A program made the translations under genes and the position numbers. Source: a bacterium (GTDB lineage Bacteria > Myxococcota > UBA727 > JAUIJE01). Taken from it: 64,000 bases of DNA. Shown here in pieces: positions 58,067 through 63,190 of this stretch. The notes under the pieces were generated by a model, which saw only the letters and a program-made list of their open reading frames with translations, did not search any database and was not told the origin of the DNA. Numbering within the stretch: the first letter of the stretch is position 1; every line of letters starts with the position of its first letter. The stretch covers positions 12,115 to 76,114 of the forward strand of contig JAUIJE010000018.1 of NCBI GenBank assembly GCA_030431455.1, read 5' to 3'.

Positions 58067-58791
58067 TGGCGGGCGCACGGCGAGGACCCAAAAAGACCGG
58101 GAAAAAGACCGGCAAGAAGACGGGCGAGAAGAAGTCCGGGACGGGCAAGTCCTCGTCGGGGTTCGTCAAGCGCGGCAACGCCCGCTACGACCGGCACGAC
58201 GCGTACTACAAAAAGGCCAAGCGCGAAGGGTTCGTGGCCCGCTCGGTGTACAAGCTCGAAGAGATCGACGCGCAGTATCATTTGCTGCACAAAGGCGACA
58301 AGGTCCTCGACCTCGGGTGCGCGCCGGGCAGTTGGCTGCAATACGTGCAGAAGAAGCTCGACCCCGCCCGGGGGGGGCAGGCGGTGGGCATCGATCTTCT
58401 GCCCACCCACACCGGGTTTCCGTCGTGGGTCGAGACCCGCATCGGCGACATCTACGACGAGGACGCGCAGGGCCTGCTCCCCGATGGGGTGGACGCGTTC
58501 ACGGTGGTGCTCAGCGACATGGCCCCCAACACCACCGGGGTGCGCACCGTCGACCAGGCCCGCTCCATGGCCCTGTGCGAGCATGCGCTCTATCTCGCGG
58601 AGGAGCTGCTCGCCCCCGGGGGACGGTTCTGCGTCAAGGTGCTCGAGGGCGGGGACATGCCACAGTTTTTGACCCGGTGCCGAGAGGTGTTCGACACCGT
58701 CAAGATCAAGCGGCCCAAGGGCACGCGGGACACCAGCAGCGAGACCTACGTGGTGGGCTTGGACCGGAAAAAGCGCTCTAGCGCGGGGTGA
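58066..58791 (+). CDS. rlmE: 23S rRNA 2'-O-ribose methyltransferase RlmE (FtsJ) with Lys-rich N-extension
   Basis: RSVYKLEEID, VLDLGCAPGSWLQY, VLSDMAPNTTG, KVLEG. Confidence 0.85.
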   Translation: MAGARRGPKKTGKKTGKKTGEKKSGTGKSSSGFVKRGNARYDRHDAYYKKAKREGFVARSVYKLEEIDAQYHLLHKGDKVLDLGCAPGSWLQYVQKKLDPARGGQAVGIDLLPTHTGFPSWVETRIGDIYDEDAQGLLPDGVDAFTVVLSDMAPNTTGVRTVDQARSMALCEHALYLAEELLAPGGRFCVKVLEGGDMPQFLTRCREVFDTVKIKRPKGTRDTSSETYVVGLDRKKRSSAG

Positions 58792-59932
58792 GCACGAGCT
58801 TGCCCCCGGGCTCGTCCAGTTCCATTTTGAACCGCGACAAGAAGGACAGGCCGAGCAGGCCATCGATGCTGTCGTCGAGGTTCTTCACCACCACGACCTC
58901 GACGCGCGCGGCCTTCGCCCCCACGAGCTGGATCTCGTCCGCGTGGGTGGTCTGGCCCGAGGTCACCCCGTTGGCGGTCTTGAGCAGAATGCGGCGCCCC
59001 CCGTCGGTGGACAGCCCCGCCTGCGCGGCGAACCCCGGGGTGACGCTGACCAAACTCGCGCCGGTGTCGACGAGGAAGCGGCCCTTGTGGCCGTTGATCT
59101 TGGCCGTCACCGGGATGGTGCGGCCGGGCACAAACTTGACCACGGTCTTGGCCCCGCTGGTCCGCTCTCCACATTTTCCCGCGGATTCCAGGCGGTTGAG
59201 CCGGGCCACGATCTTGGGGCGGCCGGCGTACTCCGGGTGCATGTGGATGAGGTGCTCGATGGGGAAGAGCCCGTCACACGGGCGGCCCAGCTTTTCGTAG
59301 GCCTTGGAGAGGTCGAACGGACAAGAGGTCGCGGTGGGCAACAGCAGCAGGCATTGCTCGTAGTCGGCGGCGGCCTTTTCGTGATCGCCCATCAAGGTAT
59401 AGGCCTGACCGCGCCACCAGTAGTAGTCCTGGTCTTCGGGAACCTCGTCGACGAGCACGGTGGCTTCGCGCACCGCCTGGTCAAACTCGCTGAGCTGTTT
59501 GTGGGCGTGGTAGGTCACCCACCGCATCCGGGGCAAGGCGCCGCACTGCTCCCAAAAGGCGTGCGCGGTGTTGATCGCGCCGCGGTAATCGCCAGCGCGG
59601 TTCTTGGCCTCCCCGAGTTGGATCGCGGCGCGCCGATCACACGGCTCGCGCTCGATGATGTCGCTGAGCTTGCGGACGTCGGCCGCGTGACGGCCGTAGT
59701 CGAACGGCCCTTCGATCTGGGTCAGGGCAAAACCCGCGCCCCCCAAAAGCCCCACCGCGGCCACCGCCGCGAGGGCGGTGCGGACCTTGGCCCGCTTGCG
59801 CCGGACGAGGAGGCATTCGGGGCACACCGTCTCGACGCCGCTGAGCATCTGGCAGGCGTCGCAGATCGGGCGCACACACTCGGCGCACAGCCCGCGGGCT
59901 TCGGTATCACGGTGGCGGTGGCAGCGTTCCAT
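58778..59932 (-). CDS. membrane protein: N-terminal zinc-ribbon, TM, TPR-like region, retropepsin-like (clan AA) aspartyl protease domain
   Basis: CHRH...CAEC...CDAC...CPEC cysteines. TM helix ALAAVAAVGLLGGAGFAL. FLVDTGASLVSVT is a D-T-G-A motif. Confidence 0.65.
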   Translation of the reverse strand: MERCHRHRDTEARGLCAECVRPICDACQMLSGVETVCPECLLVRRKRAKVRTALAAVAAVGLLGGAGFALTQIEGPFDYGRHAADVRKLSDIIEREPCDRRAAIQLGEAKNRAGDYRGAINTAHAFWEQCGALPRMRWVTYHAHKQLSEFDQAVREATVLVDEVPEDQDYYWWRGQAYTLMGDHEKAAADYEQCLLLLPTATSCPFDLSKAYEKLGRPCDGLFPIEHLIHMHPEYAGRPKIVARLNRLESAGKCGERTSGAKTVVKFVPGRTIPVTAKINGHKGRFLVDTGASLVSVTPGFAAQAGLSTDGGRRILLKTANGVTSGQTTHADEIQLVGAKAARVEVVVVKNLDDSIDGLLGLSFLSRFKMELDEPGGKLVLTPR

Positions 59933-60313: not shown

Positions 60314-60322
60314 GCGAGACAC

Positions 60323-60372
60323 AAAAAATCCCCTGAGGGCATGCGCGCGATGGCCAATCGCGCCCTCAGGGG
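60323..60372 (-). terminator. intrinsic terminator (functional orientation: minus strand)
   Basis: The minus strand reads CCCCTGAGGGC...GCCCTCAGGGG, an 11-bp outer stem with further inner pairs, followed by ATTTTTTGT. There is no T-tract on the plus-strand side. Confidence 0.6.
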
Positions 60373-60665
60373 GCGGTGGTAGAGGGGTTGCCTCGCACCA
60401 TTTTTTTGGGCGGTGTTGCCGTCGTGGCTATCCCGACGGGGACCGCCTACGCGGGAGGACCCGCGCATCTGGCTGGCGCTAGGACGCCACCACCTCACAG
60501 GCCATAGGGTTACTACCAGACACTGGATCACCTCCCTTCGCGGCGTAGGCGAGACGCCCTTTTTCGTCTCCCCGCCCTCGCGCCGCCGGTGCACGAACAC
60601 GGGACCGCCGGACTGATTTCCGACTTGGGGTGCGTGTCCCACCCCTCGAACCCCCAGCCTACCAA
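60373..60665 (-). ncRNA. candidate structured non-coding RNA of unknown class (5' end approximate)
   Basis: No credible ORF. Nested long-range helices: 60445-60458 with 60531-60550, 60569-60577 with 60672-60680, and 60378-60389 with 60649-60663. Local hairpins at 60551-60570 and 60627-60645. Own terminator downstream. Confidence 0.4.
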
Positions 60666-60729
60666 TCGACCGGGCGGGGAGCCAAAACCTGTCTCACACG
60701 CCACTGGCGCGACACGTCCCCGGGCGGGG

Positions 60730-62589
60730 CTACGGAAGCGGAAGCTGGGTGAGGTTGAGCACGTAGGCGCCCTCGTCCCCCGCGTCCCGGCCGTCGACGA
60801 CGATGTAGTAGGTGCCCGGCGCCAGGTCCTCGTCGAGGTGGTCGGGGTCCGACGATTTGAACAAGGCGTCCTCGCTCGAGCCACACACCGGGCTCAGGTA
60901 CACCTCCGGGTGTTCGTAGGTGGCGATGAGGTCGAGCACCACGCGGGTGGGCGCGGTCACCTCGATGGCGTACACCTCGTCGCCGGCCGCGCCGCGTTGT
61001 ACCCGGGGCGCGAACTTGGAGGGCAGGCCGCCGGTGTTGCCGCTGACGTTGGTGTTGCCGGTGAGCAAGGTGGCGCCGCTGCACAATGTGACAGGATCGG
61101 CAATGGCCGCGGTCGCGACCGGGCCCCCCGGGTCGGCGGTGTAGCCGAGCTCCTTGGCCACGATGTATTCGCCAGCATCGAGCAGGCCCTGGGGAAAGGG
61201 AAACGGAACCGCGCCCAGCGGGTCACACCCGTCGAGGAGCACGAGGTCGCCTTGGGTGGTGGGCACGTCGAACAGAACCACCGACGGCTCGGTCAGGCTG
61301 AGGGAAAACAGCGCCTCGTCTTTGCCGTAGCTGGGGCGACAGTCGCCCAGGGCGTTGGTGCGCCCGGGCTCGTCCGCGGCCAACGCGAACGTGCCGCCGG
61401 CGGAGACATCCACCGCGAGGTCGCAGGCGAGGGCCTCGGCGGGTTCGAGGGTGGGGGTGAGCTGAAACTCGTACGGCGCGTCGGGAATCCCGGGAAAGCC
61501 GCGCGCAGCGGTGACGGTCACGATGTGGGTACCGGCCTCGAGCCGTTCGCAGCTTCGTTCGGTGGTGGGGAGCAAGCAGAAGAAGGAGCCGCATGAAAAA
61601 CAAGTCTCGGCCGGGGCGGCCGCGTCGCAGCTGTCGGTGACCTCGACGTAGTACACCGCTTCGTCGAAGTTCCCGTCGCCGGGGATGGCCTCGAGGTCGA
61701 GGGCGAGGTTGAGCACGGACGGTTCGGTCACGTCGATGTCGAAGTAGACCGCCCACCCACAGCTGTCGGACGGCTCGCCCCCGGCGGTGGACTGGCCCAC
61801 GGTCTGGCCCGAGGTGAGCGGGCTGGCGCTCTCGCACTGTCCATTGTCCACCGCGCACGCGGGATCCGCGGCGTTGGCCACGCCGTTGCAGTCCTCGTCG
61901 CCGAGCAGGTCGCAGTCCTCCGCGGGCGCGGGCACGGTGGGGTCAAGGTCGTCGCAGTCGTTGCCCCCGCACACGGGTGCATCGACATTGTCGCCATCGA
62001 TGTCGCACGGGTCGTAAAAGTAACACGTGCCCTCGAAACAGTAGTCTTGGGTGCCCAGGTCGCCGTCGTCACAATCTTCATCGCCGGTGCACGCGTCGTC
62101 GCCGTCGCCGTCGCCGTCTCCATCTCCGTCTCCGTCTCCGTCTCCGTCACCGCCACATTCGGCCGCGTAGTCCGCGCAACAATCGCCGAGCTGCACACAC
62201 TCCAGGTCACATTGGCATGGGGCCCCGTCGACGAAGGTGCCGCACCGGCCGGCGCAGCTCAGGTCACCATCCCCGTCACCATCCCCATCCCCGTCGCCGT
62301 CGCCGTCGCCGTCGCCGTCTCCATCTCCGTCCCCGTCGCCATCACCATCTCCATCTCCGTCGCCGTCGCCGTCGCCGTCGCCGTCTCCATCTCCGTCACC
62401 ATCACCATCACCATCTCCATCCCCGTCGCCGTCGCCGTCACCGTCTCCATCACCATCTCCGTCACCGTCACCGTCACCATCTCCATCGCCCACGGCGTCC
62501 CCCGTGCACGCGGGGACGGCCCAGCACATCATCAGACCACACAGGAGCAGGACAAAAGCACGCACCAACGCCACGGCGCCTCCCAACAT
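60730..62589 (-). CDS. secreted protein: (GD)38 tract, somatomedin-B-like 8-Cys module, second (DG)n tract, MopE-type Cys/Asp motif, PPC-like jelly rolls
   Basis: Signal peptide with [80 protein letters not shown]-terminal [22 protein letters not shown]. Confidence 0.75.
62263..62490 (-). repeat. 228-nt uninterrupted Gly-Asp dipeptide-coding repeat (38 units) with scrambled synonymous codons
   Basis: On the plus strand every triplet alternates (GTC|ATC) with (ACC|CCC|GCC|TCC). A second, shorter tract lies at 62095-62154. Confidence 0.9.
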
Positions 62590-62717: not shown

Positions 62718-63140
62718 TCAGGCGCGCTCGAGCCACTGTTGCATCTGGGCCGCGGGCACGACCCCCGACTGCTCGAACACCGGCGCCCCGTCTTTGAACA
62801 CCATAAAATGCGGGATGCCGCGGATGCCGTAACGTTGGGACAAGCCCGGGTGGCGCTCGGTGTCGACCTTGAGCACCAGGGCGCGTCCGCCCATGGCCTG
62901 CGCGGTCTTTTTCACCTCGGGGGCGGCCATGCGGCAGGGGCCGCACCACGATGCCCAGAAGTCGACCAAGACCGGCACCTTGGCGTGCCCGGTGATGTCA
63001 GCGAACGCGGCCTCATCGACGTCGATGGGGCTGTCCATGGCCGGGAGCGGACGGCGACACGCGCCGCACTTTCCGTCGTCGGCCAGGTGGGCCGCGGGCA
63101 CGCGGTTCTTTTTGTGGCAGTGGGGGCAGCTTCTCAGCAT
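62718..63140 (-). CDS. trxC: thioredoxin 2-type (N-terminal zinc finger plus WCGPC thioredoxin fold)
   Basis: CPHC...CGAC, then [12 protein letters not shown] and [17 protein letters not shown] at 63140. Confidence 0.85.
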
Positions 63141-63190
63141 CACAGACCTCCCTGTCTCACACCGTGCGCACCCCCCGGGGGGCGACAAGC

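Follow-up and report, generated by a model that had tools for sequence, protein, structure and literature searches.

The window, by which we mean the whole 64,000-nucleotide stretch of DNA analysed, carries on its minus strand a gene (P0001) whose product is very acidic, with 105 Asp and 31 Glu residues beside 4 Lys and 11 Arg, and a net charge of about -120. From the N-terminus, a signal peptide is followed by a long Gly-Asp tract, a somatomedin-B (SMB) module, a second Gly-Asp tract, a Cys-rich acidic segment and three beta-sandwich domains (Table 1). An earlier sequence-only reading had described an uninterrupted 76-residue Gly-Asp repeat with a second tract behind the Cys module, and both are present as described. 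No catalytic family was found in the protein by Pfam or NCBIfam searches. Between this gene and its counterpart in a 99.4%-identical strain from an independent study there are 5 synonymous and 2 nonsynonymous changes, and the gene is under purifying selection. Contigs from an RNA library that cover the gene were not taken as a sign of transcription, since the same contigs also span intergenic DNA.

Table 1. Features of the P0001 gene, in window positions, with the corresponding residues of the protein.
Feature	Residues	Position	Strand	Remarks
Whole CDS (P0001)	619 aa plus stop	60730..62589	(-)	from first possible start codon
Signal peptide	1-28	62506..62589	(-)	ends in lipobox-like A-V-P-A-C28; read from sequence
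(GD)38 tether	34-109	62263..62490	(-)	hexanucleotide GGN-GAY array with 66-bp higher-order period
SMB domain	111-147	62149..62259	(-)	Pfam PF01033, PDB phmmer, model
Second Gly-Asp tract, (GD)9	147-164	62098..62151	(-)	with an extra D, spans residues 147-165
Cys-rich acidic segment	166-252	61834..62094	(-)	D-x-D-G-D / CGG-DCDD motif; homologue alignment
Beta-sandwich domain 1	about 256-383	61441..61824	(-)	model strands; PPC, collagen-binding and CUB-type fold matches
Beta-sandwich domain 2	about 399-497	61099..61395	(-)	model strands and fold matches
Beta-sandwich domain 3	about 507-617	60739..61071	(-)	best-conserved domain; pLDDT 83-97

The A-V-P-A-C28 sequence comes after the hydrophobic core of the signal peptide, and its proline at -2 is atypical of the lipobox pattern [LVI][ASTVI][GAS]C. 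The orthologue P0005 has the canonical lipobox L-A-T-A-C, the SMB paralogues encoded in the same genome have [GA]-C lipoboxes, and MYXO-CTERM scores above its cut-off in two of these paralogues. Judged from its sequence, P0001 is probably exported and held by a lipid anchor on Cys28, with SPase I cleavage after VPA instead of lipidation as a conceivable alternative.

The Cys module of P0001 has the eight-cysteine spacing C-x3-C-x8-C-x-C-x3-C-x5-CC-x6-C exactly as previously proposed, between residues 112 and 145 (Cys112, 116, 125, 127, 131, 137, 138 and 145). Against a gathering cut-off of 23.1 bits, the Pfam profile PF01033 scores 38.9 bits over the whole protein and 46.0 bits over residues 105-150, in an alignment that spans profile positions 2-39 of 40. 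Phmmer matches in the PDB include ENDOU (4e-8), ENPP1 (2e-5) and vitronectin (1.4e-4), and all 42 PDB sequence matches of the module with E up to 1 are SMB-containing proteins. A template-free AF2 model of the module (pLDDT 87.2) superimposes on the vitronectin structure 1oc0_B with a TMt of 0.81, an rmsd of 1.3 Å and 50% identity, and on ENPP1 with an rmsd of 1.0-1.3 Å; SMB-containing proteins also make up all of the best 50 of the 118 fold matches with E <= 10. The profile, the PDB sequence matches and the predicted fold thus agree with the initial proposal of a true somatomedin-B domain, and on these grounds the module is a bona fide member of the SMB family. The vitronectin sequence given with that proposal also agrees with 1oc0_B as aligned. 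The eight cysteines are invariant across 103 prokaryotic modules and are predicted to form a four-disulfide knot in P0001; export to an oxidising compartment, which fits the signal peptide, is consistent with such disulfides.

Compared with the eukaryotic SMB domains of vitronectin, ENPP1/2/3 and ENDOU, the eight-cysteine spacing is the same except for loop 2, which is one residue shorter here. The G-R-C-G, C-Q-C-D and G-D-C-C-x-D-Y motifs are shared, the predicted superposition is within 1.0-1.3 Å, and, as in the animal proteins, SMB is a small accessory module placed N-terminal to the larger domains of an extracellular protein. The differences are the bacterial host, the probable lipid anchor and the PPC-like sandwiches that are its partner domains in P0001. 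The PAI-1/uPAR-binding hot spots of the vitronectin SMB are reportedly Phe13, Asp22, Leu24, Tyr27 and Tyr28. In the vitronectin alignment, the Phe and Asp are kept in P0001, while Leu24, Tyr27 and Tyr28 are replaced by Glu130, Gln133 and Leu134. No serpin (PF00079) was found in the 96.9%-complete genome. A vitronectin-type, PAI-1/uPAR-binding subtype was rejected on the basis of these replacements and the absence of a serpin from the genome.

The module is set within Gly-Asp sequence. The first tract has 38 Gly-Asp units, a count that comes solely from the deposited assembly; public Logan short-read contigs, including those of the source sample, are interrupted at each of the two GD arrays in all four runs. 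It is encoded by 22 GAC and 16 GAT codons for Asp, and by 12 GGC, 11 GGT, 10 GGA and 5 GGG codons for Gly, so that the use of every codon for Asp and for Gly, as earlier noted, is borne out by the count. The further statement that these codons follow no fixed order proved partly wrong on closer analysis. Tandem Repeats Finder detects a 66-bp higher-order period (11 GD units, 3.4 copies, 89% matches), and the self-match of the codon array at a lag of 11 units is 89.5%, above the maximum of 85.4% reached by 20 shuffles. The period indicates that part of the array arose by segmental duplication.

The most unusual feature is the use of Gly-Asp runs throughout this genome, where 367 of them lie in 281 ORFs. 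Of 300 further genomes sampled from the phylum, 295 lack such runs altogether. In about 200 of the GD ORFs, a hydrophobic segment plus [GAS]C lies no more than 80 aa ahead of the first run; the median distance is 15 aa. Genome-wide, the rare codons GAT, GGA and GGT are far commoner in GD runs than elsewhere in the same genes, and the longest stretch of perfect hexamers is, at the median, 3 units long, with at most 4 units in the (GD)38 array. This enrichment of rare codons and the shortness of the perfect runs favour the idea of selection on the peptide put forward in the sequence-only reading, and the tract looks, from its codons, to be selected at the peptide level. The sharing of 36-mers between arrays (374 pairs, compared with 247±23 after shuffling) was discarded as a measure of exchange between loci because shuffling destroys local GGCGAC runs.

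The array might instead be mainly a hypervariable contingency locus, in which slippage or recombination alters the length of the tether and no particular length is selected. The 66-bp higher-order unit of this hexanucleotide repeat does signal recent segmental duplication, and the short-read assemblies of all four runs break at the arrays; no variant in length was seen in these assemblies, whose contigs end where the arrays begin. However, the repeat unit is in frame, so slippage would change length only and could not switch the gene off, and the mixing of synonymous codons keeps runs of identical hexamers short (at most 4 units here, a median of 3 across the genome). We regard this explanation as unlikely, and it is compatible with, rather than exclusive of, a role of P0001 as a tethered binding protein.

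Two kinds of known sequence resemble the Gly-Asp tract. The Ser-Asp (SD) stalk of staphylococcal MSCRAMM proteins (ClfA, SdrC/D) is likewise a long X-Asp repeat encoded by a codon-mixed 6-nt unit, and it separates the cell anchor from the ligand-binding domains. It differs in that the Gly of the GD tract takes the place of Ser, leaving no Ser for glycosylation, and in that P0001, which has no LPXTG, is probably anchored through an N-terminal lipobox (some paralogues through MYXO-CTERM). Glycosylation has been reported on the Ser residues of SD repeats. Only the SD regions of the NCBIfam ClfA/Sdr models align with the GD tract, and P0001 scores 33 bits, on the repeat region only, where the cut-offs are 999-2500; by this sequence comparison the likeness is a low-complexity resemblance and not homology. 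Pfam TrAA12 and NCBIfam MSCRAMM matches among the SMB-bearing ORFs were likewise dismissed as low-complexity artefacts on GD runs. The disordered N-terminal linkers of Gram-negative lipoproteins share with P0001 a low-complexity stretch right after the (in P0001 probably) lipidated Cys, and at the place of the GD tract the orthologue P0005 carries a plain linker rich in D/G/A/P; P0001 stands apart in its strict 76-residue dipeptide repeat with an SMB knot inserted. The literature searched gave nothing relevant on GD/DG peptide repeats.

Behind the second tract lies the conserved part of the protein. Each of seven full-length homologues of this core (P0005, P0006, P0007, P0010, P0031, P0050 and P0067; E 1e-10 to 3e-51) combines a lipobox and an acidic linker with the MopE motif and the three domains, and none has SMB or a GD run. 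This comparison of sequences showed SMB and GD to be lineage-specific additions to a conserved lipoprotein family made up of a MopE motif plus three beta-sandwiches, in whose other members a linker of common type, rich in D/G/P, takes their place. The core has no paralogue in the genome, and no neighbours in common with the G025 orthologue were seen when the ORF lists were compared by eye. Within the Cys-rich segment, the motif columns are conserved in the homologue alignment, in line with a MopE-like putative metal-binding motif. PF11617 gives no match at E<=0.1 in residues 160-260 of P0001, and scores 30.4 bits in the homologue P0002 and 27.4 bits in P0004 against a cut-off of 27; the confidence of the model is low for residues 160-250.

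The pLDDT of the core model is 77 as a whole and 83-97 for the last domain, of which other proteins have up to 19 copies. Its fold matches are the tandem collagen-binding domains of ColG (5iku, E 3.2e-9), a single ColG collagen-binding domain (CBD; 1nqj, TMt 0.74) and a PPC domain (5sv5, TMt 0.72). Like PPC domains and the CBDs of clostridial collagenase (ColG s3a-s3b), the core consists of tandem beta-sandwiches of about 110 residues; unlike them, it comes without a peptidase domain, and the PPC profile (PF04151) stays below its cut-off of 25.9 bits, at 13.6 bits in P0001 and 17-23 bits in the homologues.

We propose, with a probability of about 0.6, that P0001 is a real gene, from an uncultured bacterium of Myxococcota type, whose product is an exported, probably lipid-anchored, tethered and non-catalytic binding protein. 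By analogy with the staphylococcal Ser-Asp stalk, the (GD)38 tract would be a disordered, polyanionic and flexible stalk that keeps the binding modules off the membrane. The three beta-sandwiches may, by analogy with their fold matches, bind a polymeric or cell-surface ligand, and the Cys-rich MopE-like segment is probably Ca-binding. Beside the tether, SMB could serve as a small, oxidation-locked accessory module for binding or stabilisation, with a ligand not of the serpin/uPAR type.

The same acidic features could be read as the active part of the molecule, making P0001 not a tethered adhesin but a periplasmic or released buffer or metallochaperone for divalent cations (Ca/Cu); the poly-Asp and the MopE-like motif would then be the working parts, and the sandwiches a scaffold. 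The net charge of about -120 with 105 Asp residues, the D-x-D-G-D motif, the occurrence in homologues of PF11617 (a "putative metal-binding motif") and the crystallisation with calcium of similar ColG-type collagen-binding domains (title of 5iku) all point in this direction. However, it is the three beta-sandwiches that the family conserves, while the acidic tract is swapped for unrelated linkers in homologues, and GD runs on about 280 unrelated proteins, including enzymes, are a better fit to a generic linker. A metal buffer is thus, in our estimation, improbable.

SMB is taught as a module of the animal extracellular matrix and of ectoenzymes, and the sequence-only reading had called it rare outside eukaryotes and implied that this gene acquired it horizontally. 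Neither view is upheld by its distribution. A PF01033 search of this genome found 21 modules in 14 ORFs, and SMB occurs in 38 of 301 sampled genomes and 21 of 137 genera of the same phylum. In a second phylum it is present in 32 of 151 genomes, a single one of which can have as many as 42 modules. SMB is thus frequent in predatory bacterial phyla. A scan with a degenerate DNA pattern, which provides a sample and not a census, extended the search beyond the two sampled phyla; among the matches listed, SMB passes the cut-off in metagenome-assembled genomes (MAGs) that carry the labels Gemmatimonadota, Neomarinimicrobiota and Methanosarcinales, and in one MAG labelled Isosphaeraceae its score equals the cut-off of 23.1 bits. 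No functional or experimental study of a bacterial SMB protein was found in the literature searched.

Recent transfer of SMB to this gene from an animal or another eukaryote draws on the definition of the domain in animal proteins, on the 50% identity to the SMB domains of human vitronectin and ENPP1 in structure-based alignment, and on the orthologues of the core that have no SMB. The identity to human SMB is matched by that to bacterial modules (43-60%), and a phylogeny of the 40-residue domain was judged uninformative for this reason. Divergence among the modules of this genome (mean identity 47%) is as great as their divergence from those of other prokaryotic genomes (43%), and together with their number here, their spread through both phyla and their presence in the Gemmatimonadota-, Neomarinimicrobiota- and Methanosarcinales-labelled MAGs, this makes recent eukaryotic transfer very improbable. 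The wide occurrence and the divergence of the modules indicate that the immediate source of SMB was a prokaryotic pool, and core homologues without SMB and GD indicate a shuffled accessory module and not a one-off acquisition. Forty residues are too few to tell whether, and in which direction, an ancient transfer between domains of life took place. That the cysteines are a chance pattern or another bacterial knot family is scarcely credible: short Cys-rich modules can cross-match and the genome contains further unnamed Cys modules, but the profile score is twice the curated cut-off, the PDB sequence matches and the best 50 of 118 fold matches are all SMB-containing proteins, and a PF01033 search of 14 control genomes found nothing.

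Elsewhere in the genome, SMB accompanies a trypsin-like protease, an alpha/beta hydrolase, an LPMO-like protein, a C-type lectin, a temptin-like protein and others, and PF01033 was confirmed in all 12 of the SMB paralogues tested. Of the 14 ORFs with SMB, 13 have GD runs beside it, and within this genome the module combines promiscuously with other domains. P0001 shares with the other SMB-bearing exported proteins a lipobox (probable in P0001), GD runs and one or more SMB modules ahead of a larger domain. It differs in its cargo of three PPC/CBD-like sandwiches with a MopE-like motif, and in having GD runs on both sides of SMB. One speculative reading, to which we assign a low probability, is that the GGN-GAY arrays act as recombination substrates that move SMB between genes for exported proteins, as a prokaryotic counterpart of exon shuffling, and, linked to this, that prokaryotic SMB, abundant in predatory phyla, was the source of the animal domain. 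Recombination between arrays would explain why SMB lies inside a GD tract here and the orthologues have a plain linker, why one genome has about 280 GD ORFs and 295 of 300 others have none, and why SMB stands beside GD in 13 of 14 ORFs with unrelated cargo.

No major paradigm is altered by these findings, and the gene is one member of a larger SMB/GD set. They do show SMB recurring as a building block of proteins that members of two bacterial phyla export, in up to about 40 copies per genome. A bacterial SMB protein would be a tractable system in which to study what the knot binds where there is no serpin or uPAR, and where the domain came from. The strict Gly-Asp linker in about 280 exported proteins may likewise be seen as a natural experiment, both with disordered tethers of polyanionic character and with the stability of repeat DNA through the mixing of synonymous codons.

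P0001, a 619-residue protein, holds a small cysteine-rich module between two Gly-Asp (GD) tracts (see table), and three lines of evidence agree that this module is a somatomedin-B (SMB) domain. The Pfam profile PF01033 (cut-off 23.1 bits) matches the whole protein at 38.9 bits and residues 105-150 at 46.0 bits, covering profile positions 2-39 of 40. A phmmer search of the PDB returned only SMB-containing proteins, namely ENDOU (4e-8), ENPP1, vitronectin (1.4e-4), ENPP3 and ENPP2. A template-free AlphaFold2 model with an input alignment of 103 prokaryotic modules (pLDDT 87) has fold matches in the PDB that are all SMB domains, including vitronectin (1oc0_B; target-normalised TM 0.81, rmsd 1.3 Å, 50% identity) and ENPP1 (rmsd 1.0-1.3 Å). 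The sequence-only reading had proposed an SMB-like module from a cysteine spacing that is exactly the one read from P0001, and from a vitronectin sequence that is the same as chain 1oc0_B as aligned; its proposal holds, as the PF01033 match is significant and the pattern does not belong to another knot family.

Features of P0001 and its neighbourhood (window coordinates unless marked as residues)
Feature	Position	Strand	Details
P0001 ORF	60730-62589	-	619 aa; start is the first possible one after an in-frame stop
(GD)38, uninterrupted	residues 34-109; 62263-62490	-	
SMB cysteines	residues 112, 116, 125, 127, 131, 137, 138, 145		
(GD)9 plus D	residues 147-165	-	
Zinc-ribbon thioredoxin 2	62718-63152	-	directly upstream of P0001, 128-bp gap; PF00085 88 bits, PF21352 36 bits
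230-aa ORF	upstream of P0001	-	unassigned
400-nt spacer	downstream (3') of P0001		sub-threshold sRNA-like Rfam matches
Rfam matches in spacer	60321-60547	-	Ms_IGR-5 26 bits (GA 45), CC2171 25 bits (GA 75); both sub-threshold
Terminator-like hairpin	60542-60558	+	
Small membrane-protein ORF	downstream, past the 400-nt spacer		convergent
384-aa protein	58778-59932	-	N-terminal B-box-like zinc finger, TM segment, TPR repeats, C-terminal retropepsin-like aspartyl protease (PF13975, 75 bits)

The vitronectin-specific binding residues, Leu24, Tyr27 and Tyr28, correspond in the PDB alignment to Glu130, Gln133 and Leu134 of P0001; most of this set is not conserved. No serpin was found in the window's own genome (7.7 Mb in 28 contigs, 96.9% complete), and the SMB domain of P0001 should not be expected to work like that of vitronectin.

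The sequence-only reading called the domain rare outside eukaryotes, a view that does not survive the survey of this part of the tree. Above the PF01033 cut-off there are 21 matches in 14 ORFs of the window's genome; even sampling of its phylum gave matches in 38 of 301 genomes and 21 of 137 genera, the phylum of an 'Oligoflexales' MAG has them in 32 of 151 genomes (up to 42 matches per genome), and 14 control genomes gave none. A wider scan with a degenerate DNA pattern for C-x-C-x3-C-x3-G-[DN]-C-C-x-D-[YF] found at least 146 sites, 115 of those 146 with the complete eight-cysteine signature. Myxococcota or 'Deltaproteobacteria' is the label of most of the 80 records listed; a few carry the labels Oligoflexales, Gemmatimonadota, Isosphaeraceae, Neomarinimicrobiota, DPANN or Methanosarcinales, with the reservation that MAGs can be mislabelled or misbinned. 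Against PF01033, four of five such records scored above the cut-off, with the Isosphaeraceae MAG at exactly 23.1 bits. Large independent expansions of 22-42 modules per genome are seen in four genomes of the 'Oligoflexales' MAG's phylum (G439, G404, G333 and G357) and in one genome of a different family in the window's own phylum (G039).

Mean pairwise identity of the modules is 47% within the window's genome and 43% to modules of other genomes, and the best paralogue of the P0001 module and a module in another MAG each share 60% identity with it; the modules within this genome are old. The distribution and divergence of prokaryotic modules rule out that an animal module was recently transferred into P0001. 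Forty residues are too few to resolve an ancient transfer between domains of life.

Pfam confirmed SMB in all 12 of the other SMB ORFs scanned in this genome. As cargo these ORFs carry, among others, a trypsin-like protease, a chlorophyllase-type alpha/beta hydrolase, an LPMO-like sce4755-family protein, a C-type lectin, temptin-C and DUF7107, and a three-SMB protein on contig C18 reaches 106.8 bits. Two of the 12 end in a MYXO-CTERM sorting signal above the cut-off, which supports affiliation with Myxococcota. Many paralogues (L134, L135, L139, L140, L141, L142) have a second small cysteine module next to SMB, sometimes in tandem, with the form W-x-C ... (D/G)G-x-C-D-C-G-C-G-x-x-D-x-D-C (for example at C24:109693-111453) and no Pfam family match. 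At C2:26369-27028 (+), an SMB of 41.7 bits sits at the extreme end of a 220-codon open frame whose upstream part resembles R/S/T/P-rich translation of non-coding DNA; a frameshift, a gene in decay or a mistake in the assembly could each account for this.

GD runs adjoin or lie near SMB in 13 of the 14 SMB ORFs, the exception being the C-type lectin protein on contig C3. Across the genome, 281 stop-to-stop ORFs hold 367 runs of at least five and up to 66 units. By a rough regex test rather than a predictor, the 80 aa ahead of the first run include a hydrophobic stretch plus [GAS]C in about 200 of these ORFs (median distance 15 aa). The pattern (GGNGAY)x10 has 4,160 matches here, against matches in just five of 300 further genomes from the phylum, each with a few loci that are mostly perfect single-codon-pair microsatellites; the reversed-pattern control gave zero. 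The linkers that flank modules in other genomes are poly-Gly, PT or PE, and no ORF among the 146 listed from the pattern scan has three or more GD units. Heavy GD usage is peculiar to this genome, the only member of its family and genus among those compared.

Within the GD ORFs, GAT makes up 39% of Asp codons inside runs and 16% outside, and GGA 20% of Gly codons inside and 5% outside; the longest stretch of identical hexamers has a median of three units, even in arrays of at least 20. These data support the earlier argument, which favoured peptide-level selection and spoke against long perfect repeats. The accompanying claim that codons follow no fixed order fails for (GD)38, in which Tandem Repeats Finder detects a 66-bp period (11 GD units, 3.4 copies, 89% matches) and lag analysis a self-match of 89.5% at 11 units, compared with at most 85.4% in 20 shuffles, indicating that part of the array grew by segmental duplication. 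All public short-read contigs stop at both arrays and so give no information on repeat length; the 38-unit count is that of the deposited assembly alone.

The window sequence, from a metagenome-assembled genome, is present in two DNA runs of one study. A 99.4%-identical strain occurs in two RNA-library runs (X3 and X4) of an independent 'biofloc' study, over window 60693-62086. The two strains differ at seven positions in the P0001 coding sequence, five synonymous and two nonsynonymous, the pattern expected of a coding gene under constraint. We see no operon logic in the neighbourhood. Thioredoxin 2 is cytoplasmic and so probably plays no part in forming the disulfides of exported P0001, and ORF lists compared by eye show no likeness to the neighbours of the orthologue P0005. 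The window's order, as delimited in the genome set used, also has a family (f2) of 21 genomes that span just 0.3-3.4 Mb at high completeness, against 5-8 Mb in relatives, an unusually wide range of sizes.

A phmmer search with the core of P0001 (residues 240-619) against 1.84 billion representatives gave 203 matches, seven of them full-length, including P0005 (37% identity), from another order of the phylum. The common plan of the seven is a signal peptide (with none at the N-terminus of P0006 and P0007), a linker that is either ordinary and D/G/P/A-rich or made of extra cysteine repeats, a MopE-like motif and three domains; none has SMB or a GD run. Of the five signal peptides, four end in a lipobox-like [AG]-C, and P0031 has an atypical Ile at -2. 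The homologues P0002 and P0004 pass PF11617, P0002 additionally passes a galactose-binding-like family, and PPC is sub-threshold throughout. Residues 160-619 are modelled as three beta-sandwiches (pLDDT 77; 83-97 in the last domain), with the best PDB match to the tandem collagen-binding domains of ColG (5iku, E 3e-9), TMt of 0.74 to the ColG domain 1nqj and 0.72 to the collagenase PPC domain 5sv5, followed by CUB and neuropilin-type sandwiches. Pfam and NCBIfam profiles detected no catalytic family in P0001, so the part conserved across the family is a non-enzymatic array of domains, binding-type by predicted fold. SMB and GD were added at the N-terminus in a lineage-specific way.

P0001 contains 105 Asp, 102 Gly and just 15 basic residues. 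Cys28 is probably lipidated, and (GD)38 would form an extended, highly charged, flexible stalk, much like the Ser-Asp stalk of staphylococcal MSCRAMM proteins, whose NCBIfam models match over the repeat regions only. The three beta-sandwiches would bind a polymeric or cell-surface ligand, and SMB would add, at the end next to the tether, a knob locked by oxidation that serves in accessory binding or stabilisation. The poly-Asp tract and the D-x-D-G-D motif could plausibly bind Ca2+.

In the literature searched we found no studies of bacterial SMB proteins, though such proteins exist in databases. SMB and GD are accessory and shuffled in nature, and P0001 combines a known domain family with a new variant of architecture and GD tether. 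The gene itself is not unique; it presents a mildly surprising domain-distribution result and an unusual lineage-specific linker.
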